64,000 nucleotides of DNA from an uncultured Actinomycetota bacterium (GCA_963761285.1 CAVXGJ010000008.1:86062-150061); one strand, 5' to 3'. Positions 9,269 through 49,717 are shown, counted from the first letter of the stretch. A program made the numbers and translations. Notes: generated from the sequence alone by a model not told the origin.

Positions 9269-9323
9269 TCGTCCACAGCCACGCCGCAGCCATGTGCCGT
9301 GCGTCGGCCCCCGCCGTTAGGGT
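9269..9323 (+). promoter_or_regulatory. dinG promoter: DnaA-box variant plus PafBC-like element and -10 (leaderless)
   Basis: TCGTCCACA 9269; CGTCGG-N10-TAGGGT 9302-9323; GTG 6 nt after the -10. Confidence 0.5.
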
Positions 9324-9329
9324 GCTCTG

Positions 9330-11348
9330 GTGCCTGACGCCCCCAGCCCCGAGACCACCGCCGACTCCGCGGTGCACACGGTGCTGGCCACGGCTGTCGC
9401 CGCCCTCGGCGGGGCCGAGCGCTCCGGGCAGGTCGCGATGGCCGATGCCGTCGGCAACGCGTTCCGGAAGAAGGAGCACCTGCTGGTGCAGGCCGGCACC
9501 GGCACCGGCAAGTCGTTGGCCTACCTCGTGCCCGCACTGGTGCACGACAAGCGGGTCGTGGTCGCGACGGCCACGCTCGCGCTGCAGCACCAGCTCGTCG
9601 AGCGTGACCTTCCGCGGCTGGTCGAGGCGGTCAAGGGCTCGCCGGGCGTCGACACCTCCTACGCCGTGCTCAAGGGCCGCTCCAACTACGCCTGTCTGCA
9701 CCGCATCCGCGAGGGCGTCCCCGACGACCAGGGGGTGCTGGTCGACGTGCCCCAGGGCTCGATGGCCGAGAAGGTGCTCGAGCTGCGTTCGTGGGCCGAG
9801 AAGGAAGCCACCGACAAGGGCTCGGGGGAGCGCGACGCCGCGCCCCGCCATACCGACCGGGAGTGGCGCCAGGTCAGCGTGGGCCACCGCGACTGCCTGG
9901 GTGCCACCAAGTGCCCCTTCGGCCAGGAGTGCTTCGCCGAGGTCGCCCGCGAGAAGGCCCAGCGCTCCCACCTGATCATCACCAACCACTCGCTGCTCGC
10001 GATCGACGCGATCGAGGGCATCCCGATGATCCCCGAGTACGACGCCGTGGTGATCGACGAGGCCCACGAGCTGACCGCGCGGGTCACCCAGGCCGCCACC
10101 GACGAGCTGACCTCGGCCGACGTCGAGCGGGCCGCGCGCCGGTCGGTGCGCCACGTCGAGGGCAACGAGGCCGACGACCTCGCCGATGCCGGCGATGCGC
10201 TGCGCGATGCGATGGCCGAAGCCCGACCGGGCCGGATGGAGCGACTGCCTCCCGAGCTCTCCGACGCCCTGGTGCTGGTGCGCGACGCCGCCCGCGCCTG
10301 CCTGTCGGCCTACCCGAAACCGTCCGACGCCAAGGGCAAGGACGGGGAGGCCGATCCCGGCCTCACCCAGGCCAAGGGCACCGTGCAGGACGTCTTCGCG
10401 GTCGCCGAGCGGATGGCGGCCTGCGCGGCGACCGACGTGCTGTGGCTCAACGAAGGCGGCACCGGCGAGCGCAGCCGGATCCCCCCGCGCCTGGCCATCG
10501 CTCCGCTCGAGGTGTGGGGGCCGATGCGCGACAAGCTCCTGACCGACAAGACCGTGGTGATGACCTCGGCGACGCTGATGCTCGGAGGCGACTTCTCCTC
10601 GCTCGCCACCAACGTCGGGCTCAAGCCGACCGAGCGCGTCGGGCGCACCGACGACGCCGACTTCGGCGAGGACGCCCAGCCGTGGGTCGGCCTCGACGTC
10701 GGTTCGCCGTTCGACTACGCCCAGCAGGGCATCCTCTACGTCGCCCGCCACCTGCCGCCGCCGGGCCGCGACGGTCTGGTCAAGGCCCAGCTCGACGAGA
10801 TCGTCGAGCTCGTCGATGCCGCCGAGGGCCGCACGCTCGGGTTGTTCTCGAGCCGGCGCGCCGCCGAGGCCGCGGCCGAGGAGGTCCGCACCCGGCTGCC
10901 CCACCTGACGACGCTCGCGCAGGGCGAGGCGCAGCTGCCCGAGCTCGCCAAGCAGTTCGTCAGCGATCCCCACACCTGCCTCTTCGGGACCCTCAGCCTC
11001 TGGCAGGGTCTCGACGTGCCGGGGGAGACCTGCCAGCTGGTGCTCATCGACAGGATCCCGTTCCCCCGCCCCGACGACCCGTTGATGAGCGCGCGGCAGA
11101 AGGCCGCCGACGCGGCCGGCGGCAACGGCTTCATGCAGGTCGCGGCCACCCACGCCGCGCTGCTGCTCGCCCAGGGCTCCGGCCGGCTGATCCGCACCAC
11201 CACCGACCGCGGGGTGGTCGCCGTACTCGACCCGCGGCTCGCGACGGCCCGCTACGGCTCGTTCCTCAAGGCCTCGCTGCCGCCGATGTGGACCACCACC
11301 GACCCGGCGATCGTGCGCAAGGCGCTGGCCCGGCTGGCGGCCGGCTGA
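9330..11348 (+). CDS. dinG: ATP-dependent DNA helicase, DinG family
   Basis: QAGTGTGKS, KGRSNYAC Fe-S cysteines, DEAH, GVDVPG-like GLDVPG, QGSGRLIR. Confidence 0.93.
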   Translation: MPDAPSPETTADSAVHTVLATAVAALGGAERSGQVAMADAVGNAFRKKEHLLVQAGTGTGKSLAYLVPALVHDKRVVVATATLALQHQLVERDLPRLVEAVKGSPGVDTSYAVLKGRSNYACLHRIREGVPDDQGVLVDVPQGSMAEKVLELRSWAEKEATDKGSGERDAAPRHTDREWRQVSVGHRDCLGATKCPFGQECFAEVAREKAQRSHLIITNHSLLAIDAIEGIPMIPEYDAVVIDEAHELTARVTQAATDELTSADVERAARRSVRHVEGNEADDLADAGDALRDAMAEARPGRMERLPPELSDALVLVRDAARACLSAYPKPSDAKGKDGEADPGLTQAKGTVQDVFAVAERMAACAATDVLWLNEGGTGERSRIPPRLAIAPLEVWGPMRDKLLTDKTVVMTSATLMLGGDFSSLATNVGLKPTERVGRTDDADFGEDAQPWVGLDVGSPFDYAQQGILYVARHLPPPGRDGLVKAQLDEIVELVDAAEGRTLGLFSSRRAAEAAAEEVRTRLPHLTTLAQGEAQLPELAKQFVSDPHTCLFGTLSLWQGLDVPGETCQLVLIDRIPFPRPDDPLMSARQKAADAAGGNGFMQVAATHAALLLAQGSGRLIRTTTDRGVVAVLDPRLATARYGSFLKASLPPMWTTTDPAIVRKALARLAAG

Positions 11349-11378
11349 GCCTCACGGCTTGCCCGCCGACAGCACGAA

Positions 11379-11403
11379 CCCCCCGAGACGGCGTCTCGAG
11401 GGG
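11379..11403. terminator. Hairpin between convergent genes
   Basis: CCCCGAGACG/CGTCTCGAGGGG inverted repeat with one bulge. Confidence 0.4.
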
Positions 11404-11426
11404 CCCGTGGCGGGTGGATCAGTCGA

Positions 11427-14611: not shown

Positions 14612-14612
14612 C

Positions 14613-16418: not shown

Positions 16419-17159
16419 TCAGAGCGAACGCAGCACCGCGGTCACGACCCCGAGGATGGTGGCGTGGGTGCCGTCGATCGGGTCGAAGGCCGGGTTGTGG
16501 GGGAGCAGCCACACCTGGTCGCCGGTGCGCTGGAAGGTCTTGACGGTGGCTTCGCCGTCGATCATCGCCGCCACGATCTGGCCGTTCGTGGCGGTCTGCT
16601 CCTGGCGGATGACGACGTAGTCGCCGTCGCAGATGGCGGCCTCGATCATCGACTCGCCGCTGACCTGGAGCAGGAACAGCTGGCCGTCGCCGACGAGCTG
16701 GCGCGGCAGCGGGAAGACGTCCTCGAAGGTCTCCTCGGCCAGGATCGGGCCACCCGCGGCGATCCGACCGATGAGCGGCACGTTGGTGGGGGTCTGGGCG
16801 ATGTCGCCGATGCCGGTCTCGTCATAGGAGGTCTCGTCGGAGCTCGACAGCGAGCGGCGAGCCGCCATCACCTCGGGCAGGAAGACCTCCAGGGCGCGGG
16901 GCCGGTTGGGGTCGCGCTTGATGTAGCCCTTCTCCTGCAGCACCTTGAGCTGGTGGGCGACGCTGGAGGTGCTGGTCAGCCCGACCGCGCCACCGATCTC
17001 GCGCATGCTCGGCGGGTAGCCACGCAGCTCGATGCTGTCCTTGATGTGGGTCAGCACCCGCTGCTGGCGCGGCGTCAACCCGGTCGCGTCGGGCGGGCCG
17101 TCGGGGAGCTCGGAGACCGAGCGCTTACGAGGAGCCGGGTTCTTGGGGGTCGAGGCCAT
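16419..17159 (-). CDS. lexA: SOS repressor LexA
   Basis: [22 protein letters not shown] cleavage site, GESM Ser, EATVK Lys. Confidence 0.97.
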
Positions 17160-17191
17160 GGCCTCAGCGTGCCAGAAGATCACCCCTGAGT

Positions 17192-17207
17192 TCAAACATG
17201 TGTTCGA
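17192..17207. promoter_or_regulatory. LexA (SOS) box
   Basis: TCAAAC-ATGT-GTTCGA, one mismatch to the actinobacterial TCGAAC-N4-GTTCGA. Confidence 0.85.
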
Positions 17208-17241
17208 ACGGCGTGTCGCGCTCGCCTGCCAGACTGCGCCC

Positions 17242-18078
17242 ATGAGCGACGAGAGAAGAACCCCGGTCAACAGTCAGAGTGTCTGCGTGGTCACCGGAGC
17301 GGCGCGGGGGATCGGCCGCGGGATCGCCGAACGGCTGATCCGCGACGGTCACCAGGTGGTCATCACCGACCTCGACGCCGCCGGAGTGGCGGCGACCGCT
17401 GCCGAGATCGGCGCGATCGCGGGGCTCGAGCAGGATGTCCGTGACCCGGCGTCGCACCGCGCCGTGGCACGCGAGGCGACGGCCCACGGCCCGCTCCGCG
17501 GTTGGTTCAACAACGCAGGAGTGGGCTGGGACGGCCCGCTGAGCGAGCTCGGCGACGAGCAGGTCCGCGGCCTGGTCGAGATCAACCTGCTCGGGGTGCT
17601 GTGGGGCATGCGGGCCGCGCTCGAGGTCTTCGAGGCCGGCGGGGCAGGCGGGGCCGATGGGGGAGGCGGGGGCGACATCGTCAACACCGCCTCGCTCTCC
17701 GGTCTGGGCCCGGTGCCCGGGCTGTCGGTGTACGCCGCGACGAAGGCCGCGGTCGTCTCGGCCACGATGTCGGTGGCCATCGAGGCGCCGAAGGGTGTCG
17801 GGGTGCACGCGATCCTCCCCGACGGCGTGGCGACGCCCATGGTGGAGGCGATGAATGCGGGCGGGCTGGCGAAGGCGCTGGTGTCGTCGGGAGGCCGACT
17901 GTTGAGTGTGGAGGAGATCGCCGACGCCGCGGTCGGGCTGATGGGCAGCCGCCGGGTCCTGCGCACGGTGCCCGCCTGGCGGGGCGCAGTGATGCGCGGC
18001 AGCTCGATGGCGCCGTCCCTCGCCGCCGGCGGGATGGCGGTCTTCGCGGCGCAGGGCAGGCGTGCGCTGAGGCGTTGA
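17242..18078 (+). CDS. Short-chain dehydrogenase/reductase
   Basis: [22 protein letters not shown]. Confidence 0.92.
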
Positions 18079-18107: not shown

Positions 18108-18192
18108 TCGAACAAATGTTCGCTCCAGGGGTTGTGCTCGTTCGAACACCTGATCTAGTCTCGTACATGTGTTCGATCGAACGTCTGATCGG
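18108..18192. promoter_or_regulatory. Cluster of 2-4 SOS boxes over a sigma70-type promoter
   Basis: TCGAAC-AAAT-GTTCGC 18108; TCGTAC-ATGT-GTTCGA 18161; weaker boxes at 18142 and 18177; TTGTGC-N18-TAGTCT. Confidence 0.8.
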
Positions 18193-18223: not shown

Positions 18224-18245
18224 TGTCGGTGCCGGCCACTAGACA
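18224..18245 (+). promoter_or_regulatory. PafBC/RecA-NDp-like element
   Basis: TGTCGGTG-N8-TAGACA (last base differs from TANNNT). Confidence 0.45.
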
Positions 18246-18287
18246 TCGGGGCACACACCGAACGTCCTCTTCCCCAGGAGTTTTGCC

Positions 18288-18635
18288 ATGAGCGCCATCA
18301 CCGAGACCCGCATCGCCGACTTCGCTTTCGACTTCGAGGTCGACCGCACCCCCGACTACCGGCTCACCCGCCGCGGTCGCCTGGTCGTGCTCGTCACGGG
18401 GCTGCTGGTGCTGCTGGCGATCGGCGTTGCGTTCGCCGGGGTCTCGCTCGCCTCGGAGGAGCCGCAGCCCACCGAGACGATCACGGTCGGGCCCGGCGAC
18501 ACCCTCTGGGACATCTCCTCCGGTCTGACCGCCGGCGGCGACGTGCGCGACATGATGCGCCACATCGAGCAGCTCAACTCCCTCGACACCGTCGCCCTGG
18601 CCGTCGGCCAGCGCCTGCAGGTCCCCGCGGAGTAG
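18288..18635 (+). CDS. LysM-domain SOS cell-division inhibitor (ChiZ/DivS/YneA-like)
   Basis: RLTRRGR, TM helix, LysM TVGPGDTLWDI...LNSL...VGQRLQVP; position near lexA and nrdR. Confidence 0.85.
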   Translation: MSAITETRIADFAFDFEVDRTPDYRLTRRGRLVVLVTGLLVLLAIGVAFAGVSLASEEPQPTETITVGPGDTLWDISSGLTAGGDVRDMMRHIEQLNSLDTVALAVGQRLQVPAE

Positions 18636-19658: not shown

Positions 19659-19733
19659 TTGCGTCGTCACGACACCGGGCGTAGGGTCACCACTACATCT
19701 AGTAGTTACACGGATGTAGTTATCCACATCTAG
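19659..19733 (+). promoter_or_regulatory. nrdRJ promoter with tandem NrdR boxes
   Basis: TTGCGT-N17-TAGGGT; cores CTACATCTAG (19693) and CCACATCTAG (19724) 31 bp apart, matching acaCwAtATaTwGtgt. Confidence 0.85.
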
Positions 19734-19803
19734 TCCACAGATCGCGGCGGATGGCTAACAGATAGCTCGAGGTTCTCCACAGGGAGAGCCTCGGTCGTCC
19801 ACA
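19720..19803 (+). promoter_or_regulatory. DnaA box (perfect) plus three degenerate boxes in the nrdR leader
   Basis: TTATCCACA 19720; TAGTCCACA 19731; TTCTCCACA 19773; TCGTCCACA 19795. Confidence 0.6.
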
Positions 19804-19841
19804 GCCTGCCACGGTCTTCAGCGCGCGAAGGAGGCCCGCCA

Positions 19842-20372
19842 ATGCACTGTCCCTACTGCCGGGCCACCGACACCCGGGTGCTCGACTCCCGGGTCGCCGA
19901 CGACGGCGGCTCGATCCGGCGCCGTCGGATGTGCTCGGCTTGCGAACGACGCTTCACCACCGTCGAGCTCATGCAGCTGACGATCCTGAAGCGCTCGGGC
20001 GCCAGCGAGCCGTTCACCCGCGAGAAGGCCGTTGCGGGGGTCCGCAAGGCCTGCAAGGGCCGCCCGGTCACCGAGGACCAGCTCGCCCGCCTCGGTCAGG
20101 ACGTCGAGGACGCCCTGCGTCTGGCCGGCGCCGCCGAGATCGCTGCCCACGAGGTGGGCCTGGCGATCCTCGGTCCGCTGCGCGACCTCGACGAGGTCGC
20201 CTACCTCCGCTTCGCCAGCGTTTATCGCGCCTTCGAGAGCGCCGACGACTTCATTGCCGAGATCGCCGAGATGCACGCGGCTCCGAGCGCCCCGTCGGAG
20301 GTTGAGCAGCGAGCGCCAGCGAGCGTCGACGAAACCCCGCATGTCGCTCGCGTCCCCGTCAGCACCGGCTGA
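19842..20372 (+). CDS. nrdR: Ribonucleotide reductase repressor NrdR
   Basis: MHCPYC...[15 protein letters not shown] zinc ribbon; ATP cone [10 protein letters not shown]. Confidence 0.97.
20300..20336 (+). repeat. REP-like 37-bp repeat inside the nrdR C-terminal extension
   Basis: GGTTGAGCAGCGAGCGCCAGCGAGCGTCGACGAAACC; 33/37 identical to 23231-23267. Confidence 0.7.
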
Positions 20373-25059: not shown

Positions 25060-25065
25060 CGCCGC

Positions 25066-25120
25066 TTATCCACAGATCCCTTGAACCCTCTGGCGCGAAG
25101 AGCTCCTCCGGTAGCAATCT
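25066..25120 (+). promoter_or_regulatory. DnaA-box-type motif plus -10 (leaderless)
   Basis: TTATCCACAGAT 25066; CAATCT 25115; ATG 25127. Confidence 0.65.
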
Positions 25121-25126: not shown

Positions 25127-26409
25127 ATGCCTTCATCTCGGAAACGGCGCAACCGCACCTCACGCCCCCACGCCACCACGACCGCCAACACCCCGCCAAC
25201 GAGGAGTGCCTCGACCTCAGCGGCCCGGAGTTCAACGCTCAGATCGACGAGCTCATGACCCCGGCCGACGTCGCCGCCTTCGGTGACTACGTCGACGCCG
25301 AGGCCGTCGGAGATCCGGTGCTGGCTGCCGAGTGCTTTCGCCGAGGCCTTCACATCCAGGGCACGCCGCACCTCCCGCATCTCGCTGACCTGATCGACCT
25401 GGGCGACGACGCCCCATCGTGGGCGCTCGCGCGTTGGGCTTCTCTCCAGGCCTACCGCTGGATGCTGCACGAGCGAGACCCGCGAACGGACAACGCAGTG
25501 ATCACCACGATGCTCGCGTGCTACCCGGACGTCGACCTCGACCGCCCTCTGGGGCTGAGCTTCACCGAGTTTGGCACTCGACTCGCCTCCGGGGACTGGA
25601 TCACCCGCCAGATCGCCGTCTACGAGGCCGACGGTCTGGCCGACTTCCTCGACGTCAAGATCGGCGACGGGCTGCTTGCCCGGTGCGGTCCGCTCGCCAC
25701 TTGGCCGGAAAGCGAGCTCGGTGGCTATCGGCTGCGGCCGGGGCGTGACGGGTTTCTCGACGTACGCGACCTCCGAGATGGCAGCAGGCTCCAGGTCCTC
25801 GACATCGGCGCTCTCAACGATCGCTCGCCGGGCTGCACAGTGCTGGGCAGGGTGGTGCCGATCGACGTCGAGCCGGGCTACCTCTTTGAGTCTCGTCCGA
25901 TCGACGTCGATGACGAGACTGCGCTCGGCGTTGCCCGGGCAGATGGCCCGGAGGAGTGGCTGCCCGTGCTTGACGAGGGACGCCGGTCGGGGCGGCTCCC
26001 ACTGTTCTTCAGCCGCAACGAGGCCACCCCGCTGACCAGCGACCTGGTGCCTCGGGACGGCTGGGGGCAGACGTGCTCGCACGACCTCGAACCCTCAGCG
26101 CGTTCGATGCCGCAGGCGCCAGGACTCCTCGACCTTCAGGACCAGGGGTTGGACTCGCTGCGGGCCAACAACATCGGCGTGTGCGACGTCGCGTTGATGG
26201 CGATCGAGGTCGCGCCCGACGCAGCGTCGACAGTTGCCAACCACGTGCAGGCGGTGCTGGTCGACCGCGCGACGTTCGAGGCGGCGAAGGTGCACCGCAC
26301 CCGACCCGAGCACGCCGAGGGATGGGCCGTCCTTGCGGGAGCAGTGCCGGAGCCGGTGCGTTCGCGCTGCCTCGAGCTGGCCGCCCTGAGTCGCCGGGAC
26401 GCTGCCTGA
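25127..26409 (+). CDS. Uncharacterised protein, paralogue A (frameshift in C-run near 25165)
   Basis: MPSSRKRRNRTSR start matches the basic N-termini of B and C; shared motifs DWITRQ, GGYRL, LDIG, LGRVVP, FESRP. Confidence 0.75.
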
Positions 26410-26465: not shown

Positions 26466-27000
26466 ATGGAGGTGCTGCCCGCCATCGTCGGCGACGACCC
26501 GGTCATCGTGTTCTGCGGGTTGGCCGGCGCCGAGAGCATCAAGAGTCGCGAGCACTACTACGCCTCGCCCGGCAACAGCTTCTGGCAGTCGCTGCACCTT
26601 TCGGGACTCACCCCGCGACAGCTGCGCCCCGATGAGGACGAGCAGATCGTGGAGCACGGCTTCGGCCTGACCGATCTCGTCGGCCACTGGGACCACGCAA
26701 CGGATCGCGGGTGGGTCGACATCGATCGGCTCGTGGCCGCAGGTCGAGCAGTGGGAGCCGGCGTTCGTCGCCTTCACGTCGAAGGGAGCGGCTGCGAAAG
26801 CCGCGAAGGCGCTCGGTCATCGGGCGCCAGGGCTCGGACTCGCGGGCTGGGGCATCGCGCGCTCGGAGGTGTTCGTGCTGCCCGGCACCAGCGGCGCCAA
26901 CCAGCGCCACGACTACGACGGGCGACCGACGCGGCTGGCGTGGTGGCAGGACCTGGCGATGATCGCCGCACCGGAGCTCGGCGCACGACGTACGGAGTGA
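26466..27000 (+). CDS. mug: Mismatch-specific uracil/thymine DNA glycosylase (Mug/TDG family; frameshift near 26740)
   Basis: VFCGLAG, HYYASPGNSFW, GFGLTDL, then FTSK...VLPGTSGAN in the next frame. Confidence 0.8.
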
Positions 27001-27028
27001 TGTCCCCGGTCGCACCTATTCTCGGCGC

Positions 27029-28080: not shown

Positions 28081-28135
28081 GTTATCCACAGATCGCTTCG
28101 ACCCCCTCGCAACGGCCGCCGAGGCGGCGCAGGCT
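28081..28135 (+). promoter_or_regulatory. DnaA-box-type motif plus -10 (leaderless)
   Basis: GTTATCCACAGATCGCTTCG 28081; CAGGCT 28130; ATG 28142. Confidence 0.7.
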
Positions 28136-32219: not shown

Positions 32220-32274
32220 GTTATCCACAGATCGCTCCGACCCCCTGGCGACGGACCCGTTCTCGGCGCAGGCT
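32220..32274 (+). promoter_or_regulatory. DnaA-box-type motif plus -10 (leaderless)
   Basis: GTTATCCACAGATCGCTCCG 32220; CAGGCT 32269; ATG 32281. Confidence 0.7.
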
Positions 32275-32280: not shown

Positions 32281-33468
32281 ATGTCTCGGTCTCGGAAGCG
32301 CCCCTCGTCCATCCCGCCCGCTCGGCCGTCCAGCGGCCGCTACCGCTCGGTCGCCAGCCAGATGACCCTCGATCACGAGCTCGCCGTCGCGGAGGCCAGT
32401 GCCGCCGAGCTCCGCGGCGACTGGGCCACCGCCTTGGCCCGCCACCGGTCCGTGCCGATGTTCGTGGAGTCGCACCACGGCGCGATGTTGTCGGCGCTGG
32501 CGACCTTCGGGGACGACGCGCCCCGATGGTGGGTCACGCGTTTCCTCACCGCAATGGCGCACCGCCACGAGCTCTACGCCCAGCCGACGCGTTCGAGCAG
32601 CGTGCTGCAGACCCTGGTGCCGCTGCTCTACCCCCACGGCATCGACATCGACGCCCTGGACTGCGACCACACCGAGCAGATCGCCTCGACGATCTTCGGC
32701 TGCGACTGGGTGGTCCGGCAGGCCGATGTCTTCGACCTCGGCGGGCTGCGCGATCTGATCGCGATGCCCGAGGCGCAGGGCGCGCTGGCGCAGGCCGAGT
32801 ACGTCGCGGAGTGGGCCGCGGCTCCGATGGGCGGCTATCGCGTGGTCGTCGCCGACGGCGAGGTCCTGACCATCGCCGACGCAGTCAGTGGTGAGGAGAT
32901 GGAGCTCCTCGACCTCGGCCTCACCTGCCAGCACGAGCCCGGCACCCACGTGCTGGGTCGCGTCGTGCCCACCGGCGCCGGACCCGGCCGACTCTTCGAC
33001 TGGGCGCCTCTCCCGGTGGACCAGCGCATCGCACGCGAGGTCGCCGGGCAGCCCGACCGCTGGCTCGCTGTCATCGCCTCGCGGACCAGGTCAGGGGCCA
33101 TGGCGCCGGGCTTCGCCCACCGCCCCGAGCTGTCGGTGCACGCCGACCTCCCGCAGTTCTCGTGGGCGCTGCTGCTGGGACACCCGATCGGCACGAGGCT
33201 GCCGCGCGCGCCGAGGACGATGGTCGCCGAGGCGCTCAAGGTCGCCCTCACGCTCCCCGTCGACGACCTCGAGCGGCACCGCCACCTGGTGGCCCAGCTC
33301 CTCCTCGACGAGCTCGTGCACGAGCGATTGCTAGAGCGCTTCGCATCACCGACCTACCGTGGCGCGTGGCAAGCGCTGGCGAAGATCCTGCCCACCCCCG
33401 CGCGCGGACGCTGCGAGCAGGCGCTCTGGCTGATCGACGCCGTGACCGGCGACGAGCTCGCGGGGTGA
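32281..33468 (+). CDS. Uncharacterised protein, paralogue C
   Basis: MSRSRKRP; DWVVRQ, VFDLGGL, WAAAPMGGY, LDLG, LGRVVP, PDRWL. Confidence 0.8.
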   Translation: MSRSRKRPSSIPPARPSSGRYRSVASQMTLDHELAVAEASAAELRGDWATALARHRSVPMFVESHHGAMLSALATFGDDAPRWWVTRFLTAMAHRHELYAQPTRSSSVLQTLVPLLYPHGIDIDALDCDHTEQIASTIFGCDWVVRQADVFDLGGLRDLIAMPEAQGALAQAEYVAEWAAAPMGGYRVVVADGEVLTIADAVSGEEMELLDLGLTCQHEPGTHVLGRVVPTGAGPGRLFDWAPLPVDQRIAREVAGQPDRWLAVIASRTRSGAMAPGFAHRPELSVHADLPQFSWALLLGHPIGTRLPRAPRTMVAEALKVALTLPVDDLERHRHLVAQLLLDELVHERLLERFASPTYRGAWQALAKILPTPARGRCEQALWLIDAVTGDELAG

Positions 33469-34043: not shown

Positions 34044-34231
34044 GGCGTGCTCCTAGGGGTCTGGGTCCAAAGACACATGAATCTCATCGTGAACCCGGCC
34101 CGGGGGACCCGCCATGACCCGTTCTGACCACCCGTCCATAGCCCGCCCGGGTGATCTCGCGCGAGGGTTCGATCGTTGGTCGCGTGCGGGGCCGAACCGG
34201 TGTTGCGGCGCCACTTACTAGCCTGGACACC

Positions 34232-35689
34232 GTGAGCCCTCGCGACCCCCGCCTGCCCGACAACGTCCGAGCGCTGCGACCGGCCGACGCCGAGCGGCTC
34301 CTGCAGGACCTCGTCGGGCATGCTGCGGCACCCTCCTTCGGCCAGCTGCCCGAGCGCACGCCACCGGAACCGTGGGCGGCGCCCTCGCAGGCCCGGCTGT
34401 TCACTGTGATGCTCGCCCTCGACGACCTGGAGCCGCTCATCTGGCGCCGGCTCGCGGTGGCGGGCGACGTCACCCTCGACGAGCTGCACGGCGTCCTGCA
34501 GGAGGCGATGGGGTGGACCGACTCGCACCTGCACCGCTTCGTGATGGGTCCCGGTGAGCGCGACCACGGTCGGCTGCCCTTCGTGGAGCCCTACGCCGAG
34601 TCCGAGGGCGACGACGGCATCGTCGAGCGCGACATACGACTCGATCAGGTGCTCGCCGAGGAGGGCGACCGGCTCTACTACGACTACGACTTCGGCGACG
34701 GGTGGGAGCACACGATCACGGTCGAGGCAGTGAAGCCGCTCGAGGACGACTCGCCGCGAGCGACGTGCCTGGACGGCGCCCGCGCCTGCCCGCCGGAGGA
34801 CGTCGGCGGGGTCCCGGGCTACGAGGAGGTGCTCGAGGCGCTGGAGCGCCCCGGCGCCCCCGTCTCGGACTGGATGCGGCAGGTCCTCGACTGGCTGCCG
34901 GAGGGCTTCTATCCGTCGAAGTTCGACCTGGCCCGGACCGACGAGCTCGTACGTCGCGCCGCCGTGCCCACCCCCGAGCTGCCGCCGGCGCACCTGCTGC
35001 CCGCGCCGCTGGTCGAGGTGGTGGCCGGGCTCGACGACCGAGGTGCCGCCATGGTGGCGCACTGGTGCGTCGACGCGCTGGCACCCGTGGCGCTCGACGC
35101 CGAGGCGGCCACCGCGATCACCGCCCCCTGGCGGATGCTCCTCGACACCGTCGGCGACGGGATGGCGCTCACCGGCGCGGGCTACCTGCCGCCGGCCGTG
35201 GTCTCAGCCCTGATCGCCGGGTTGCCGGTGCGCAACCTGTGGGGCAAGGGCAACCGGGAAGAGCACACGCCGCCGGTCGCCGACCTGCACCAGACCGCTC
35301 GCACCCTCGGCCTGGTCCGCAAGGCGAAGGGCCGCCTGCTGCCCACCACCCTCGGCACCCGGCTCCGCCAGGATCCCGACGCGCTGGTCCGGCACCTGGC
35401 CGCTCGCCTGACGCCCGGCAAGAAGCCGAACCAGCGCGAGGCTGAGTGGCTGGTCGTGCTGGCGGCGGCCGCCGGGGTCATCGAACCGTACGACGACGTC
35501 GCGCAGGCTCTCTCGGGGATGGGCTGGCGTCAGAGCAACGGCGCACTGCTGCGCCGAGACCACCCCTACCACTGGGCGCACCATCCCCGAGCCGTGCTCG
35601 GCCTCGCCGGCTGGAACCCTGGGAAGTACGACGATCTCTCGCACGACCCGCGCGCCAGGATCCTGGCCCAGCTCGCGGTGCAGACCTGA
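34232..35689 (+). CDS. pRiA4b ORF-3-like domain protein with C-terminal extension
   Basis: IWRRL, LHGVLQEAMGWTDSHLHRF, YDYDFGDGWEH, CPPEDVGG. Confidence 0.85.
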   Translation: MSPRDPRLPDNVRALRPADAERLLQDLVGHAAAPSFGQLPERTPPEPWAAPSQARLFTVMLALDDLEPLIWRRLAVAGDVTLDELHGVLQEAMGWTDSHLHRFVMGPGERDHGRLPFVEPYAESEGDDGIVERDIRLDQVLAEEGDRLYYDYDFGDGWEHTITVEAVKPLEDDSPRATCLDGARACPPEDVGGVPGYEEVLEALERPGAPVSDWMRQVLDWLPEGFYPSKFDLARTDELVRRAAVPTPELPPAHLLPAPLVEVVAGLDDRGAAMVAHWCVDALAPVALDAEAATAITAPWRMLLDTVGDGMALTGAGYLPPAVVSALIAGLPVRNLWGKGNREEHTPPVADLHQTARTLGLVRKAKGRLLPTTLGTRLRQDPDALVRHLAARLTPGKKPNQREAEWLVVLAAAAGVIEPYDDVAQALSGMGWRQSNGALLRRDHPYHWAHHPRAVLGLAGWNPGKYDDLSHDPRARILAQLAVQT

Positions 35690-35757
35690 CCCAAGGCGCT
35701 CGCAACTCTGCTTGACTGTGGCCCCGTCGGACGGCGGACCACCGTCAGGGGGAGACG

Positions 35758-36652
35758 ATGAACGACTCGGCGCTGATCAGCATCGGCCTACCGATCGCGC
35801 TGGCGATCATCATGTTCGGCCTCGGTCTCTCCTTGACCGTCGACGACTTCCGGCGGGTCGCCCGCACCCCGCGCGCGGTCGCCGTCGCGCTGGTGCTGCA
35901 GGTGCTGGTGCTGCCGGTCATCGCGTTCGGCCTGGTCGTGGCCTTCGACCTCGACCCGCTCCTGGCCGTCGGGGTGATGCTGCTGGCGGCCTCGCCCGGC
36001 GGCACGACCGCCAACCTGTTCAGCCACCTCTTCCACGGCGACGTCGCCCTCAACGTCAGCCTCACCGCGATCAACTCGGTCCTGGCCGCCTTCACGATCC
36101 CGCTCATCACCAACCTCGCGATCGACTACTTCGACGCCGACGGCGAGCTGGGGCTCCAGGTCGGCAAGGTGCTGCAGGTGATGGCGATCGTGCATCGTGC
36201 CGGTCGTGGTCGGGCATGGTCGTGCGCAGCCGCTCGGCAGCTTCGCGGCGCGCGCCGACCGCCCGGTGCGGATCTTCTCGATCGTGGTGCTCGTCATCGT
36301 CGCCGTCGGTGCCCTGCTGGGGGAGCGCGACAACATCGGCGGCTACCTCCAGCAGGTCGGCCTCGTCACCGGGATCTTCTGCGCCGCCAGCCTCACCCTC
36401 GGCTACGTCGGCGCCCGGGTGATGCGCCTCGACGAGCCGCAGGCCATCGCCAGCTCGATGGAGGTCGGCATCCACAACACCACCATCGCGCTCACCATCG
36501 CGCTGAGCGTCCTCGACAGCACCGAGGTCGCCATCCCGGCGGCCGTCTACTCGGTGCTGATGTACGTGCTCGCGACCGCCTTCGGGTTCCTGATCACCCG
36601 CGGCCGCCGCTCGTCGCGCTCGGCCGGGACCACTGTCGGTGGTCACCCCTAA
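35758..36652 (+). CDS. Bile acid:sodium symporter family transporter (frameshift near 36190)
   Basis: IMFGLGLSLT, SPGGTTAN, GDVAL, MEVGIHN. Confidence 0.88.
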
Positions 36653-36687
36653 CGTCTCTCCCATCGGGACGAGAGGTAGGGGTGAGG

Positions 36688-37953
36688 ATGAGCGAGAGCA
36701 CGGATCTGGAGGCTGCCACCGAGGCGGCGTGGCTGACCTTCCGCGGCCGGCTGGCCGACCACATCGCGGTGATGGACGACGACGACGTGTTGTTCGTCGA
36801 GTTCAGCGGTGTGGTCGACCCGGGTGCCGTCGGCAGCAACCCCTACGTGCAGGTGTGCGCCTTCGACGGTGACCTGGTGCAGGTCGAGGCGGCGAGCAAC
36901 TGCTTCCTGGACGACCGGTGTCTCCTGGGCGCCGATGACCACGCAGCCCTGCTCGCCCTGGGGTGGGACGAGCCCGGCGAGGAGCCCGGCTGGGAGAACT
37001 ACCACCTCACCTTCGAGCAACGCTCCGCCGACGAGGTCGCGGTCCTGCTCGTCGCCACGCTGCGTGAGGTGTACGCCGTCCCGCACCCCGCGTTCGTGCG
37101 CGCCGACGCCCTGGCGCCCGAGGCCGGTGCCCCGGCGCCGGTGGTCGGACCGACGCCGGCCGACGACCCCGAGGAGACCGAGGAGACCGAGCTCGAGGGG
37201 ATCCCCAACGGTCCCGAGCACCTCCAGCTCATGGTCGACGCCGCGCTGACGACGATGCTGCCCGACCTCAAGCACGACCACGACGGCGACATCTCGATCG
37301 TGGCCGGCTCCAGCCTGGTCTTCGTGCGGGTCATCACCGACCGGCCGTGCGTCGAGCTCTACGCCGAGATCGTCATCGGCCCGCAAGACCTCGAACGCCT
37401 CGACACCGAGCTGGTGCTGCTCAATGCGGCCTACCCGCTCTGGAAGTTCGCCCGACGTGACGAGCTGGTCGTGATGACCCACGAGATGATGGCGCTGCCG
37501 TTCGCGTCGTTCGGGTTGCGCACCCTGGTGACGCGGTTCGTCGCGGAGGTCGACCGGATCGCTGCCGACCTGTCCGCCCGGGTCGGCGGACGTCTCTTCC
37601 TCGACGAGGAGCCGGTCGAGGACGAGCGCGACGTGCTGCTGACCGGGCTCCTCGAGCTGCTCCACCTCGAGCGGGTCCGACCGGCGACGGTCGCCGGGCT
37701 CTTCGGCCACGACCGGCTCGAGATCATCCGCCAGATCGTCCGCATCCGCAGCGGCCGGCAGTCGTGCGACGACCTCGATGAGGACGTCGTGCTGACCGCG
37801 CTGCGCAAGGCGCTGCGCTTGGTCTCCGACGGCGAGCCGGTCGCGACGGTGGTGCCGCCGAAGCCGCGTCGGCGCTCGGTGCAGGAGCCGCTGCTCGACG
37901 GGCTCGACGGGCTCGGGGCCGATGGGTCGTTCGACCTGGGGTGGTCTGCCTAG
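36688..37953 (+). CDS. Multi-domain T3SS-chaperone/YbjN-like (TY-Chap) protein
   Basis: PYVQ..., SNCFL...LGW N-terminal domain; DHDGD...GSSLVFVRV...LN...WKF YbjN-like domain (recognised from memory). Confidence 0.55.
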   Translation: MSESTDLEAATEAAWLTFRGRLADHIAVMDDDDVLFVEFSGVVDPGAVGSNPYVQVCAFDGDLVQVEAASNCFLDDRCLLGADDHAALLALGWDEPGEEPGWENYHLTFEQRSADEVAVLLVATLREVYAVPHPAFVRADALAPEAGAPAPVVGPTPADDPEETEETELEGIPNGPEHLQLMVDAALTTMLPDLKHDHDGDISIVAGSSLVFVRVITDRPCVELYAEIVIGPQDLERLDTELVLLNAAYPLWKFARRDELVVMTHEMMALPFASFGLRTLVTRFVAEVDRIAADLSARVGGRLFLDEEPVEDERDVLLTGLLELLHLERVRPATVAGLFGHDRLEIIRQIVRIRSGRQSCDDLDEDVVLTALRKALRLVSDGEPVATVVPPKPRRRSVQEPLLDGLDGLGADGSFDLGWSA

Positions 37954-43427: not shown

Positions 43428-43481
43428 CTGTCCACAGGCTCGGAATTCGAGGTTTTGGCGGCTCGTCGTAGCGGTGAGCGT
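43428..43481 (+). promoter_or_regulatory. DnaA-box variant plus -10-like hexamer (leaderless)
   Basis: CTGTCCACAG 43428; GAGCGT 43476; ATG 43489. Confidence 0.4.
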
Positions 43482-43488: not shown

Positions 43489-46167
43489 ATGACCTCCACC
43501 CGACGCCTTTCGCGTTCCCTCCGTCGTCCCTTCCGCCGTCCCCTCCTGGCCACGCTCTGCGCGCTCGTCCTGGTGCTCGCCACCTTCAGCCTCGTCGTCG
43601 CCCCGCCCGGTGGGCCGCCCCCGGCTGCGGCGGCGACGCGGGTCGCGAAGGACGACTGCCGCAGGATCGACCCCAACCTCGTCAACGGCGTCTGCCTGCG
43701 CTTCGCGACGCCGCGAGGCAGCGCGCTGACCTGGATCGGCACCTATCGGGCACCCGAACGGGCGGGTGTTCTTCTGCATCGACTACCTCTACGACTCCCG
43801 GTTGCCGGCGCAGGCCGAGTCGGTCTCGACCCGCGACCTGGTCAACCAGCTCGGTCAGGGCGTCGGCGACCGTGAGGTGGCCGCCCTCAACTACGTCATC
43901 TCGACCTGGGCCGGGCGCGGCTCGACCGGCAGCGACGAACGCGACGCCGCGATCGCGCTCATCGTGCGCGAGGTGATGGACGACGGCACCCGTCCGGGCG
44001 GGGTGGTCGTCTACCCCGGCGGCCTCGAGGTGGGCGAACGGGTGCGCCCGCCGATCGGCGGGCTCGGGCGGTGAGGTGATGCGCCTGGCTCGCACGATGT
44101 GGCGGGAGGCGTCGCGCGCCTACGGTCCGTGGCGGCTGAGCCTGCGCAAGACCTCCGACGGGCCGATGCGGCTCGGCCGCAGCCGCACCTACCGGGTCGA
44201 GGTCACCAGCGCCGCGGGGCGTCCGGTCAAGGGCGTCCGGGTGCGGCTGGCCTGCCGTGGCCCGATCACCTGCCCGGACGGCGTGCGCACCACCCGCCGC
44301 GGTGCGCCGCTGCGGGTGCGTCCCACCGAGACCGGTCGGTTCCGGATCCGCGCGCGGGTGTCCGGGCCGGACTCCGACGGGCTGCTCTACCGCGAACGCG
44401 GGTGGAGCACGCACGGCGGCGCCACCGCCCGGGCGCTCGGAGTCCAGCGTGGATGGATCGCGCAGGACAACCGGGCGCGAGCATCTGCGACGGCGCGCAC
44501 CACCATCAAGAAGGCTCGCCCGGAGGTGGTCACCCGCACGTCGCACCCGGTGGTGAAGCCCGGGGCCGACCTCCACGACGTCGTCACGGTCACCGGACTT
44601 CCCGAGGGCTACGCCGCCACCGTGGTCGCCACCCTGCACGGTCCGTATGACGAGCGCCCCGGCCGCGACGACGTGCACCGACGCCAGCCGCGCCGGTCGG
44701 GTGCGCTTCGAGGTCGACGGCAACGGCACCTTCACCACCCCCTCCGTCACCGTGGCCGCGGTGGGCTACTACACCTGGGTCGAACGCTTCCCCGGCGACC
44801 GCTTCACGGTGCCGTTGACCACTCGTTGCGGGATCGTCGAGGAGACCACGCTGGTGGAGCCCTTCACCCCGGCCCTGATCACCGAGGCCTCGCGGCAGCG
44901 AGCCGAGGTCGGCGACGCGATCCACGACTCCGTCGAGGTCACCGGTCTGGCCGACACCGCGGCGACCCTCGAGTGGGCGCTGCACGGGCCGCGCCGTCCT
45001 GTCGACGGGTCGTGCGGCGAGGTCCGCTGGGGTGCGGCGGAGGTGGCAGATCAGGGCAGCCTGGCGATCAGCGGCGACGGCACCTACCGCACGCCGGCCA
45101 CGCGGCTGGCGCGCGCCGGTTGCTACACCTACTCCCAGCGGCTCGCCCCCACCGCCCTCAGCTCCGAGGCGCTCAGCCCTCCGGGCCTGGCGCTCGAGAC
45201 GACGCTGGTGCGGCGTCGTACGCCCGAGGTGACGACGGTGGTCTCCGACCAGCGCGCGCTGGTCGGCGACAAGATCCGCGACACGGTGCGGCTGCGAGGA
45301 CTGTGGTCGGGTGACCGGGTCCGGGTGTCGTGGCGGCTGCACGGTCCGCTCGCACCGCAGCGGGGCACGTCGTGCCGCGGGTTGGACTGGTCGGACGCGC
45401 CGGTCGTCGACGAGGGCGAGTTCGGGGCGCGCGGCAACGGGCGCCACCACACCCGCTGGACCACGGTGCGGGCGCCGGGGTGCTTCACCTACTCCGAGAC
45501 GGTGGCCGCGACCGATGCCACCGACCGGGTCGCCACCAGGCCCGGGATCCCGCTCGAGACCTCACTGGTGACCCGGCCGGTGACCCCGATCGTGCCGGAG
45601 ATCCCGTCGGGCTTCGCGATCGCTGCCGGCGACGCCTGGGACCGGCCTGCAGAGCGGACGACGCCGCGCTACCTCGAGCGCCGCTACGTCGCACCCGAGT
45701 CACCCGACCTGCTGCGCGGGGCGGCTTCGCCCGCCGAGCTGCGGATCCCGCGGTTGGGGATCCGGGCCGGGGTCAGCAGCGTCGGGCTCGACGCCGGCAC
45801 GATGGCGATCCCCAACGACACCGGCCGGCTCGGGTGGCTCTCCACGACCGCGGCGGCCACCGACCTGATCGGGGCGAGCCTCATCTCGGGCCACGTCTCC
45901 GACCGCCGCGACCGTCCGGGGGCGTTGTGGCGGCTGCGTGAGGCGCGGGTGGGCGACGCGGTGCGGTGGACCGACGCGAGCGGCGCGACGCAACGCTTCG
46001 TCGTACGTCGGGTCCAGCGGTTCCCGCGCAGCACCGGGGTGCCGGCGCGGCTGCTGCGCACCACCGGGCCTCACACCCTGCACCTGGTGACCTGCGCCGA
46101 CCGGCGCCGCACGAGCACCGGCTTCCACTACGTCGACAACCTCGTCGTGACCGCGGTGCTTCCGTAG
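43489..46167 (+). CDS. Secreted multidomain adhesin-like protein fused to a C-terminal class F sortase (three apparent frameshifts)
   Basis: Signal peptide; FFCIDY domain; three repeats of ..DxVxVxGL...LHGP...GC/YYT.S/VE...ETTLV; sortase LRIPRLGI, ISGH, LHLVTC, YVDN. Confidence 0.75.
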
Positions 46168-46449: not shown

Positions 46450-46467
46450 CCGCTCGGTCGGGATGAG

Positions 46468-47088: not shown

Positions 47089-47311
47089 CGACGTGGGCCC
47101 TCCAGGGCTCATCAGGGGAACGGGAGTGCGGATGAAGCTGAGCGTGTGGAAGCTGCTTGGGTGTCGCCGGCGTGGCCGGTGTCGCCGCCACGGGGGTCAT
47201 CATCGCGCGCGACCAGCGCTCCCGCGCCGACCTCACCCCCGACGAGGTGCGCGAGCGGCTTCACGAGCGGCTCGCCGAAGTCGGCGAGTCCGGCGAGTCG
47301 GCGCCTGGCGG

Positions 47312-47615: not shown

Positions 47616-49002
47616 GGCTTCACGTAGGCGGTGATGATGCGGTAGCCGTCCGGCATGGAGCGTGTCCTTCTTCAGGTAGAGGTGCACCGACGTGCCCTCG
47701 AAGACGTCGCCGGCCCGGTTCATGATCCGGCCCGGATTGGCGACGGGTGCCTCGAAGGCAGTGGACCGCCTGGGGCTGGCGAGGAACCGGGCCAGGGTCC
47801 GGCTCCGTCAGCGCCAGTACGGTCTGGATGGAGCGCTCCGCGGTGGCCTCGTCGGTGAAGGTGGACACCAACTTCTTGCCAGGCTCGTCGATCAACCGCT
47901 GCCTCAAGAAGTCGTCCGACTTGCCGACATGCTTCCCGATCGTGTGCGCCCCCAGCGCCCACCCTCGTGCGCCGCACAAGAACGACCTGGCCCGCCCGCC
48001 GCTCGACCCAGCCTTCCCCACCTCAGCGGTCATCAGCAGCCGCGCCTCGCTCATCGGGCGCAACCGCGCCCCGACGCCGGCCGCGGCGACGCGGGTGCCG
48101 GAGAGGGCCTGGGCGGCTTCGTCGGCGTAGCGCCGCACGAGGTCGAGCATCCGCTTGAAGCGGGGCGCGGCGGCCGCGATCTTGGCGAGGTTGACGGCGA
48201 CGGCGCCACCGTTGGCGGTGCCGAAGCTGACGAAGCCGAGCGCGAAGCCGGCGGCCTGGATGAGGGCGGCGTCGCGGAGCAGGTCGCGGACCAGGTCGAG
48301 GATCGCCGCGCGCTGGGCCTCGACTGCGGCGGCGTACCCCTCGCAGAGGGCGCCCAGATCGCGGCACTGGTCGGCGAGGTCGCCGATCGCGATCACCGCG
48401 CGGCCGATGGCTGCCGTCGCCGGGAGGACCTCGGGGGAGCACTCGGTCCAGAGCTCGTTGATCGCGCGGCGCGGGTGGCCGGCGATCTCGTCGAGACCGT
48501 CGCCGGCGCGGCGCCAGGTGGCGGCGGCACTCCGCAGCCGGTCGAGGTCGGCGTCGGGCCACACGAAGCCCTCGACGTGGTCGAGGATCATGTTGGCCCA
48601 GCCGGGCAGCGACGAGGAGTCCCCGCCCAGCGACCCCGGGGGTGTCGGGGCGAGCACGTCGACCCAGTCGTCGGTGCCGAGCGAGACTCCGTCGACCAGG
48701 CGCACCTCGCCGAGGGTGGAGGCGAGCTCGGCGCGGGTGTGGTTCTCCAGCGAGGCACGCGAGTAGCGGCCCAGGGTGCCCAGGGCGCCGACCACGTCGG
48801 CGAGGGCGGCGCACGCCGCGGCGGCCGCGGCGTCGTACTCCTCGGCCCACCGATCGGCGAACGAGGAGTCGCCGGCCATCGCTGCGGTGTCGACGAGGTC
48901 GTCGGCGAGCCGGCCGACGAGCCGGGCCGCCCACACGTTGGCGAAGTGCAGGAGCCCCGAGGCCTCGCGGTAGCCGCCCCCGGCGATGTCGAGCCGGGTC
49001 AC
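47612..49002 (-). CDS. CpnT-like type VII secretion polymorphic toxin with RNase-A-like C-terminal domain (frameshifts in toxin domain)
   Basis: N-terminal MAGD...YD..A...N..AE and VWPDADLDRLRSAAATWR; C-terminal HE.G..GAHTIGKHVGKSD...STF...SMPDGYRIITAYVKP. Confidence 0.8.
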
Positions 49003-49301
49003 AGGCGCTCCCACATCGCCAGGTTGGCGCGCACCGCCGCGCCGTAGTTGGTGCGTGCGGTGCTCGCCGCCGTACGCATCGCCGCCAGGCCCTCGCGCAT
49101 CGTCGCGAAGCCGGTCTCCCACCGCGCCTGCGCCTCGAGCTGGGCAGCAGCTGCCTGTCCCTCCCAGGTCAGGTGCAGCCGACCTACTTGGCGCACGACG
49201 TCGTCCAGCGCCCGGTCGCACTCCTCCTCGCAGGCGACGAGGCTCTCGATGGTCTGCGCGAGCAGGTCCAGGTCCACGGCGTACGCCGCCGGGTGGCTCA
49301 T
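48999..49301 (-). CDS. esxE: WXG100 protein, EsxE-like
   Basis: 100 aa; RLHLTWEGQAAAAQLEAQARW...NYGAAVRANLAMW. Confidence 0.8.
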   Translation of the reverse strand: MSHPAAYAVDLDLLAQTIESLVACEEECDRALDDVVRQVGRLHLTWEGQAAAAQLEAQARWETGFATMREGLAAMRTAASTARTNYGAAVRANLAMWERL

Positions 49302-49627
49302 CCGAGGCGCTCCACGAGCCGGCGGGTCAGCGAGACCAGGGCGGTGCGCGCGGAGTCGTCGGCGCCGTCGGCCTCGGCGCCGGCGTCGACGATCAGTGCC
49401 GTCAGGCTCCGCAACGCGCCCAGGACCTCGTCGCAGCCGAGGCGCCACTCCTCCCAGCCCTCGAGGTAGGAGCGCGCCGCGGCGCCGGACCAGCCGCCGT
49501 CGAGGAGCACGTCGACCTGGCGCTCGGTGACCCGTCGGCGCCGCTCGAGGTCGTCGCTCACCCGCTGCAGGGCTGCGACGGTGGCGGCGAGGTCAGGGTG
49601 GCTGAGCTGGAGGAGGGGGTGGGTCAT
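49298..49627 (-). CDS. esxF: WXG100 protein, EsxF-like
   Basis: 109 aa; GGWSGAAARSYLEGWEEWRLG; RBS GGGAG. Confidence 0.75.
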   Translation of the reverse strand: MTHPLLQLSHPDLAATVAALQRVSDDLERRRRVTERQVDVLLDGGWSGAAARSYLEGWEEWRLGCDEVLGALRSLTALIVDAGAEADGADDSARTALVSLTRRLVERLG

Positions 49628-49662
49628 GGGAGCTCCCGAGTGAGTCCGTGGGTGACGCCTCC

Positions 49663-49717
49663 AGCCTGACCCGGATCGAGGGCTCGGAAGCGGCCCGCGG
49701 AGCAATCTGTGGATAAC
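49663..49717 (-). promoter_or_regulatory. DnaA-box-type motif plus -10 for the esx operon
   Basis: Minus strand GTTATCCACAGATTGCTCCG (from 49717); CAGGCT starts at 49668, 48 nt from the box. Confidence 0.7.

Follow-up and report, generated by a model that had tools for sequence, protein, structure and literature searches.

That the replication initiator DnaA can also act as a transcription factor is already known. In Escherichia coli it works from promoter boxes through an ATP/ADP switch and regulates dnaA and nrdAB, nrd operons being classical DnaA targets (PMC8203912), and nrdA and nrdD are among its E. coli sites (PMC11317965). In Bacillus subtilis (replication stress, sda) and Caulobacter crescentus (gcrA, ftsZ, nrd) the initiator likewise doubles as a global regulator, partly beside LexA (review PMC8203912); for Actinobacteria, the same review gives only dnaA autoregulation as DnaA-controlled (PMC8203912). 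Here we describe a class of promoters anchored by a single DnaA-type box, starting from a 64,000-nt stretch of DNA from an uncultured actinobacterium (GCA_963761285.1 CAVXGJ010000008.1:86062-150061), which we call the window and in whose coordinates positions are given. An earlier note on this DNA had proposed a box-anchored promoter architecture common to unrelated genes, and we find this architecture conserved across about 60 Nocardioides species, far beyond chance. On the sequence evidence set out below, the box-anchored regulon exists and its box is of the DnaA type; this genus-wide class, in which a single positioned box stands mostly before leaderless genes and which takes in toxins, nucleases and an uncharacterized family, adds a new form to the initiator's known second role.

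The Nocardioides boxes resemble those at E. coli nrdAB, nrdD, polA and dnaA in their recognition sequence, flanking G's included, and in having a ribonucleotide reductase target, and the E. coli ‘double DnaA box’ is mirrored by a double box with a 2-3 bp gap at Nocardioides nrdR (PMC11317965; PMC8203912). Unlike the E. coli targets, the Nocardioides class has a single box in one rigid position (-61) and one orientation, mostly before leaderless genes, and comprises tens of boxed promoters in about 1 Mb, known from sequence, as against 16 bound regions genome-wide in E. coli by chromatin immunoprecipitation sequencing (ChIP-seq). Targets in B. subtilis carry clusters of boxes where those in Nocardioides have a single positioned one, and the gene content, with polymorphic toxins and WXG100 proteins, DUF222-HNH nucleases and a genus-specific family, is unlike that of either B. 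subtilis or C. crescentus. Class I promoters, for example those with CRP centred at -61.5, combine a single upstream site, a fixed helical face and a weak core promoter; the likeness to them is one of working mode only and not of membership, the Nocardioides site being asymmetric and its protein presumably monomeric.

A further point of reference is provided by the PafBC-dependent (RecA-NDp) promoters of Actinobacteria, which are hybrid promoters of DNA-damage genes, have a canonical -10 and no -35, are often leaderless and follow the motif spacing tTGTCRgtg-8nt-TAnnnT. Their element, tGTCRg, lies at -26, compared with -61 for TTRTCCACAG in the box class, and the promoters of family X, the WXG100 operon and the surface-protein gene introduced below have no -26 element, unlike PafBC-dependent promoters, which are defined by this element together with the canonical -10 (PMC8635444). 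In the literature outside subscription journals, we found no TTRTCCACAG at -61, no actinobacterial DnaA regulon beyond autoregulation and no DnaA boxes at PafBC promoters.

Box-anchored promoters in the window

Five perfect copies of TTATCCACA lie on the two strands of the whole window, at 19720, 25066, 28082 and 32221 on the plus strand and at 49716-49708 on the minus strand. The earlier note had judged them to exceed chance, and dinucleotide-preserving shuffles bear this out, with 0.03 copies expected and 0 of 100 shuffles reaching five, in DNA whose GC content is 0.67-0.74. Four of the five have a common architecture, namely G-TTATCCACA-G followed 48 or 49 bp downstream by a weak -10 hexamer, with the predicted transcript start about 60 bp downstream of the first base of the box and coinciding mostly with the A of a leaderless ATG. 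Three copies extend to the 20-mer GTTATCCACAGATYGCTYCG, at 28081, 32220 and 49717 (minus strand), as had also been noted before.

Three of these promoters, all on the plus strand, belong to paralogous genes that we refer to as family X. Paralogue 1 has its box at 25065..25080, the -10 hexamer CAATCT at 25115-25120 (+49) and a leaderless ATG at 25127 (+61). Paralogue 2 has the box G-TTATCCACA-G-ATCGC at 28081..28096, CAGGCT at 28130-28135 (+48) and a leaderless ATG at 28142 (+60), and paralogue 3 repeats this arrangement with its box at 32220..32235, CAGGCT at 32269-32274 (+48) and a leaderless ATG at 32281 (+60). The fourth promoter, on the minus strand, precedes an operon that begins with a WXG100 gene (box GTTATCCACAGATTGCTCCG, 49698..49717; CAGGCT, 49668-49663, +48; predicted start near 49656). 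Its mRNA is leadered, with a 5′ untranslated region of about 29 nt, a ribosome-binding site GGGAG and the ATG at 49627 (+89), and the -10 is still at +48. Degenerate boxes occur at two more genes on the plus strand. A surface-protein gene upstream of a sortase gene has CTGTCCACAG at 43428..43437, GAGCGT at 43476-43481 and a leaderless ATG at 43489, which is +61 from CTGTCCACA at 43428, and the GTG of dinG at 9330 is +61 from TCGTCCACA at 9269. The hexamers at near-fixed offsets, the five start codons at +60/61 (four ATGs and the GTG of dinG) and, as sequence, both degenerate boxes are therefore where the earlier note had placed them.

The fifth perfect copy, at 19720, is followed by T rather than G, lies within the nrdR 5′ leader and has no -10 at +48. 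An orphan one-mismatch copy of the extended motif, GTTTCCACAGAT (53539..53550, minus strand), lies between a SprT-like gene and the next gene, and no -10 or gene at this copy fits the box geometry. As for an RNA element in place of a promoter, the window has no Rfam matches, and no conserved pairing between box and start was seen on inspection by eye.

Conservation and enrichment across Nocardioides

The named homologues of the three paralogues, NrdR and DinG are all from Nocardioides, and we therefore assign the window genome to Nocardioides (Nocardioidaceae); the window sequence itself is present in metagenome DNA runs only, from soil-type metagenomes, and no RNA run was found to contain this organism. 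A family X alignment scan, taking one genome per species, returned 54 loci, all from Nocardioides or Nocardioidaceae, which together with two loci from exact-protein look-ups, five from DinG orthologues and the window make up a sample of 1.14 Mb from about 60 species (loci and contigs other than the window carry L numbers). TT[AG]TCCACA is present 65 times in this sample, where base composition would give about 3.7, and for eight control 9-mers matched in composition the counts range from 0 to 6. At least 58 of the 65 strict boxes are promoter-associated and in the correct orientation: 38 precede family X genes with the ATG at +60/61, 10 lie in the nrdR-nrdJ leader, 5 precede other genes that are leaderless, and 5 precede other genes that are leadered. 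The remaining 7 were not placed by the script; by eye, 3 belong to leadered genes, 1 is the upstream half of a pair and 2 have no following G. The positional peak in relatives that the earlier note had proposed to look for is present: 36 of 61 strict boxes have an ATG at +60/61, weak boxes peak there too, and the -10 lies at +48/49. The base after the box is G in 53 of 61 Nocardioides copies.

A position-by-position base count over 45 family X promoters resolved four conserved blocks: the box, G(-1) T T R T C C A C A G(+9), with a weaker R-Y-C/T-G-C trailing it; a -35-like CTGG at +24 to +27 that is specific to family X; the -10, with T-12, A/T-11 and T-7; and the start, C-1 A+1 T G. In their T at -7 and C-1/A+1 these promoters fit the geometry of leaderless sigma-A-type promoters of Actinobacteria, but T is as frequent as A at -11. 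Between the blocks the information content is about zero, and its confinement to box, CTGG, -10 and start indicates a phylogenetic footprint rather than leftover similarity from duplication. In orthologous upstream regions the box is kept at a fixed distance from the start while the flanks diverge, and its position 3 alternates between A and G; orthologues of the paralogue-2 promoter, for example, retain box, spacing and ATG.

Unrelated genes with the same promoter spacing

Downstream proteins were grouped by clustering and annotated with Pfam, and the same box-to-(-10) spacing was found in at least eight non-homologous families, among which the DNA from box to -10 shows no similarity. Boxed genes include operons of WXG100 and RNase-type toxin genes (window, L007, L014, L026, L040, L050, L012, L058); two groups of DUF222/HNH endonucleases, in several of which a LexA SOS box, TCGAAC-N4-GTTCGA, stands between the DnaA-type box and the -10; and an unannotated ‘MGYTTDFIGHI’ family with the same geometry. 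The signal-peptide surface protein upstream of the sortase gene is boxed in the window (43428), in L006 (12880; box CCATCCACAG, ATG at +61) and in L055 (17690; box TTCTCCACAG, ATG at +62). Further boxed genes encode a putative Rhs toxin of 1,496 residues with Rhs/YD-like repeats, which were recognized other than by Pfam (L044), a ‘MDEE’ family (L024, L046), an antitoxin-like protein (L041) and a DUF6318 protein (L058).

The start codons (ATG or GTG) of real open reading frames concentrate at +59 to +62, for strict and degenerate boxes alike. Among 79 YYVTCCACAG sites outside family X, TANNNT stands at +49 in 8, compared with a mean of 0.19 per offset, and nANNNT stands at +48/49 in 24, compared with a mean of 2; a mirror-image control of the same 79 sites gave no TANNNT peak. 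In leadered genes (the window esx operon, L050 4368, L034 5579, L012 15299, L048 7489) the -10 stays at +48 while the start codon shifts, which shows that the constraint runs from box to -10 and is thus a promoter constraint. Orthologues of the WXG100 operon, of the surface-protein gene and of the three paralogues have the box at an identical offset, which makes these genes members of the class; of the gene set put forward in the earlier note, it is the toxin operon, the surface protein and the paralogues that stand, and the dinG helicase that has to be removed.

Genes for two small protein families, of about 140 and about 150 residues, are oriented divergently and begin with a leaderless ATG on the far side of a box, 38-40 bp away (L012 15259, L041 6085, L048 9695, L056 9864; and L030 14807, L034 5579, L048 7489). 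One box may serve two divergent promoters, lying at -61 of one and at about -40 of the other. Divergent from the WXG100 operon of the window is an ERCC4 nuclease-Lsr2 fusion gene (49748-50725), with the box 32 bp upstream of its ATG in reverse orientation. We rejected this gene as box-regulated, as its orthologues in six other species have no box.

A PafBC-type promoter at dinG

The dinG promoter (9269..9332, plus strand) contains TCGTCCACAG at 9269-9278, a -26 element CGTCGGCC at 9302-9309, the -10 TAGGGT at 9318-9323 and the GTG at 9330. The arrangement tGTCsGnG-N8-TAGGGT-N6-GTG is conserved at dinG in six of six Nocardioides species (window, and L058-L062 around 9940-10003). A box at -61, in contrast, is found in the window and, in degenerate form, in L060, and is absent from L058, L059, L061 and L062, four of the six species. 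We therefore rejected dinG as a member of the box class, to which the earlier note had assigned it: the box is not conserved, and the -26 element and TAGGGT are conserved instead. Judged by this promoter, dinG is an ordinary PafBC-type leaderless gene.

A double box in the nrdR-nrdJ leader

In the window, nrdR (19842-20372, plus strand) is followed by the class II ribonucleotide reductase gene nrdJ, which extends to 23453. The nrdR -10, TAGGGT (19682-19687), is followed by two 16-bp palindromic NrdR boxes on the plus strand, box 1 (19690-19705) immediately after the -10 and box 2 (19721-19736) 31 bp downstream of box 1. Streptomyces coelicolor nrdRJ likewise has two 16-bp palindromic boxes 31 bp apart downstream of the nrdR -10, and NrdR boxes lie about three helical turns apart, overlapping the transcription start (PMC9110341). 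What sets the Nocardioides leader apart from that of S. coelicolor is a DnaA box fused to box 2. The 19720 copy, which the earlier note had listed with the other four, is part of a double DnaA box, TTATCCACA-tc-TAGTCCACA-G (19720..19740, plus strand, 2-bp gap), that overlaps NrdR box 2 and has no -61 geometry. We considered and rejected the 19720 box as an intrinsic part of the NrdR box: the S. coelicolor NrdR operator oligonucleotides contain no TCCACA, and the fusion of DnaA box and NrdR box 2 is thus a Nocardioides feature.

Two further boxes on the plus strand, TTCTCCACAG at 19773-19782 and TCGTCCACAG at 19795-19804, lie between the nrdR promoter and the ATG at 19842; their TCCACA cores follow the second core of the double box by 42 and 64 bp, or about 4 and 6 helical turns. 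The double-box arrangement is conserved in seven other species (L001, L022, L023, L026, L043, L059, L060), and a spacing of 2-3 bp is the one that E. coli DnaA prefers in vivo (PMC11317965). Bound cooperatively across NrdR box 2 and the leader, through the double box and the phased ones, DnaA would repress or tune ribonucleotide reductase, as in E. coli.

Boxed promoters in metagenome contigs beyond the genus

As an independent sample, we used 43 non-oriC high-GC metagenome sites picked solely for the presence of two boxes. In 16 of the 43, TANNNT stands at +47 to +49 relative to the box nearer the promoter, any other offset having at most 1, and about 15 of the 43 also have a PafBC-like GTC element at +31 to +34; several of the sites are mutually homologous. 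The downstream genes include recA (L153, L091) and genes for UPF0102/YraN, CpaB, an M23 peptidase and DUF222-like proteins. What this sample shows is limited to two points: the +48 spacing is not an artefact of the family X set, and core promoters of the PafBC type can carry the box. Promoters of this type in the metagenome contigs, that of recA included, have a DnaA-type box at -61.

At the recA sites (L153 41-170; L091 ~4340-4480, minus strand), the gene is preceded by two copies of TTGTCCACA, a PafBC-like GTC element and TAGCGT, with the -10 at +48/49 from the proximal box. We also observed two groups of conserved, apparently non-coding transcripts behind promoters with a double box and a PafBC-like element, followed by differing downstream genes. 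The first begins GGGCACTGGGCCGCCCCCGGGATCGGGTGGGGG (L082 7122-7260, L154 1745-1880, L075, L080, L181) and the second GGGGGCCGGAGGCCAC (L085, L103, L135, L151). Neither group gave an Rfam match even at E <= 1, with 6C RNA and other known small RNAs considered, and both are candidate small RNAs.

The protein that binds the box

The Nocardioides 9-mer matches the DnaA consensus TT(A/G)TCCACA at all nine positions, and both consensus forms, TTATCCACA of E. coli and TTGTCCACA of Mycobacterium and Streptomyces (PMC4285127), alternate in orthologous Nocardioides promoters. The flanking bases fit as well. The R1 and R4 boxes of E. coli oriC both read GTTATCCACAG, and most DnaA ChIP-seq sites in E. coli, including datA, DARS1/2, mioC and nrdD, end in TTATCCACAg (PMC11317965). 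The metagenome scan that yielded the 43 sites above, for two copies of TTGTCCACA within 30 bp, also returned several dnaA-dnaN regions, among them one from Trueperaceae/Deinococcales (L097) and four with an actinobacterial-looking DnaA. In the high-GC dnaA-dnaN spacers G follows 23 of 31 boxes, many boxes are preceded by G and one reads TTGTCCACAGATCG. In sequence, the Nocardioides box with its flanking G's is indistinguishable from strong oriC DnaA boxes of E. coli and the high-GC metagenome contigs, and the consensus 9-mer, the oriC-like flanks, the nrd targets and the 2-3 bp double box together make DnaA the most likely binder of these boxes.

Mode of action and alternative explanations

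We think it probable, from promoter geometry and box identity, that in Nocardioides G-TT(A/G)TCCACA-G serves as an upstream promoter element, being a DnaA box of high affinity from which DnaA activates transcription. The box occupies about -61 to -52 from the predicted transcript start in a single orientation, as an asymmetric site of 10-15 bp, and a degenerate sigma-A-type -10 (T-12, A/T-11, T-7) begins 48/49 bp after its first base. DnaA on a single box would act like a class I activator, contacting RNA polymerase from a fixed helix face, and would make up for the weakness of the core promoter. How strongly the genes are expressed would then depend on how much DnaA is present or on its nucleotide state, and in this way on replication status or replication stress.

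Several points weigh against activation by DnaA. DnaA in living E. coli cells prefers paired boxes and often leaves a lone consensus box empty (PMC11317965), and the -61 promoters have one box, with no second at 2-3 bp in the 45 family X promoters. The conserved motif extends past the 9-mer, with R-Y-C/T-G-C at +10 to +14 lying outside the textbook DnaA box, and a gene set of polymorphic toxins, HNH nucleases and an unknown family is no obvious replication regulon. The oriC comparison draws on E. coli and high-GC metagenome contigs, identity with the genus' own oriC boxes being extrapolated from the latter, and many of the counted promoters are mutually homologous, so that the counts overstate the number of independent events.

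DnaA could instead repress these promoters, with a DnaA-ATP oligomer nucleated at the box spreading over -35 and -10 and the genes being released after initiation or on DnaA titration. The fixed orientation of the box toward the promoter would suit such directional growth, E. coli DnaA mostly represses (dnaA; nrdAB at high DnaA-ATP; PMC8203912), the nrdR arrangement looks repressive, and toxins and nucleases are genes best kept off. We nevertheless consider repression of these promoters unlikely, given that no weak boxes are recognizable from +11 to +47 in the 45 family X promoters, that the poor core promoters (the -10 is often TTGGCT or CAGGCT) suggest a need for help, and that the rigid 48/49 bp spacing is predicted by face-of-helix activation and unnecessary for occlusion.

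It is also rather improbable that another, possibly lineage-specific factor with DnaA-like specificity, such as an MtrA-like response regulator, an activator of the AraC/AdpA type acting as a monomer or a DNA-damage regulator, binds here and that DnaA has no role. Such a factor would explain why the conserved motif exceeds 9 bp and why accessory, toxin and DNA-damage genes make up most of the regulon, with SOS boxes and PafBC-like elements beside the box; a fixed placement at -61 is typical for dedicated activators, and the reported site of MtrA, known in mycobacteria as GTCACAGCG, resembles GTCCACAG(C/A) but for one base (PMC4285127). It would also have to account for a nine-of-nine match to the DnaA consensus with exactly DnaA's known A/G variation, and for flanks equal to those of oriC boxes in E. 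coli, the Deinococcales contig and the actinobacterial-looking oriCs, the first two of which are without MtrA. The 45 family X promoters contain no direct repeat, which an OmpR-type dimer needs, and in family X itself no DNA-binding fold is seen. Established biochemistry, moreover, predicts that DnaA would occupy a perfect, oriC-grade box irrespective of any other protein binding there.

Finally, a non-transcriptional origin of the boxes, as DnaA-titrating or recycling sites (datA/DARS-like) or as relics of promoter duplication among paralogues, fits three of the five window copies being at paralogous genes and the titration of DnaA by many high-affinity boxes, as established for E. coli datA, but is highly improbable, because titration needs no fixed geometry and is disfavoured by the positional statistics, the same -10 and start spacing recurring in at least eight non-homologous families and at least 58 of 65 strict boxes being promoter-associated and correctly oriented.

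If activation by DnaA is taken as the preferred reading, the box can be viewed in relation to the core promoters beside it. It co-occurs with a -35-like CTGG(C/T)G in family X, with LexA SOS boxes at DUF222-HNH genes and with PafBC -26 elements at recA in related high-GC bacteria, and this combination with differing core-promoter elements marks it as a separable module. A more tentative extension, which we hold to be possible but doubtful, is that DnaA serves as a general fixed-position co-activator in Nocardioides, and then probably in other high-GC Actinobacteria, as a third replication-stress and DNA-damage arm beside LexA and PafBC.

Family X and neighbouring genes

The three family X paralogues of the window (25127-26409, 28142-29419 and 32281-33468, all on the plus strand) have no Pfam domain. 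Family X proteins are about 400 residues long, have a basic N-terminus (MPKSRK...) and are restricted to Nocardioides. The AlphaFold model is confident, with a predicted local distance difference test score (pLDDT) of 88; comparison with the PDB gave no fold match except for a small central SH3/OB-like barrel, and no DNA-binding fold was seen in Pfam, in the model or in the fold comparison. Nothing in these predictions supports family X as the box-binding factor, and nothing speaks against it. One paralogue regularly precedes an ADP-ribosylglycohydrolase gene (window, L002, L003), which in the window lies at 26963-28075 after paralogue 1, and the paralogue-1 gene pair with the same box also occurs in L002 at 5088. 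Gene callers place several family X starts 90-150 bp downstream of the leaderless ATG, and the box geometry corrects the gene starts of several members. Compared with orthologues, the reading frame of paralogue 1 shifts after about 15 codons (25127-25200) and that of the surface-protein gene after about 88 codons (43489-44074); the two are either pseudogenes or carry indel errors of metagenome assembly. Next to family X, a PRiA4_ORF3 gene and a gene for a YbjN-like chaperone, TY-Chap1/TY-Chap3, are conserved (window 34151-37953; L002 17773-20611; L004, L006), and in the window the TY-Chap domains are fused to, or run into, an SBF transporter-like N-terminus.

The boxed operon on the minus strand consists of the WXG100 gene (49627-49298) followed by a WXG100_2/RNase_A_bac toxin gene (49221-47620). 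The window is rich in genes of DNA metabolism, with dinG, lexA, NERD and UvrD fragments, the ERCC4-Lsr2 fusion, Nei/Fpg and SprT, and also has a LysM gene behind SOS boxes. An SOS-box-like site (17192-17207) lies at the start region of lexA (16419-17270, minus strand), and four more (18108-18192) lie directly upstream of the LysM-domain gene (18243-18635), an arrangement that we take to resemble the mycobacterial lexA/LysM (chiZ-like) pair.

Implications for Nocardioides

If DnaA does activate from these boxes, Nocardioides would have a DnaA regulon that is large and can be defined computationally, in a phylum from which no such regulon has been described, and replication status would be linked to inter-bacterial toxins (type VII secretion substrates), HNH nucleases and ribonucleotide reductase. 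The promoters would offer a portable module (box, 38 bp, -10) for the contact between DnaA and RNA polymerase, including at leaderless and PafBC-type promoters. Should the more doubtful extension to a general co-activator also hold, a single box at -61 would plug into sigma-A, SOS-repressed and PafBC ‘sigma-adaptation’ promoters, recA included; polymorphic-toxin and type VII secretion operons, HNH nucleases and a genus-specific family would be coupled to the level of DnaA-ATP; and the many high-affinity boxes would also buffer free DnaA. For family X, conserved and structurally novel, this predicted regulation is the sole known property and provides a handle on the family.

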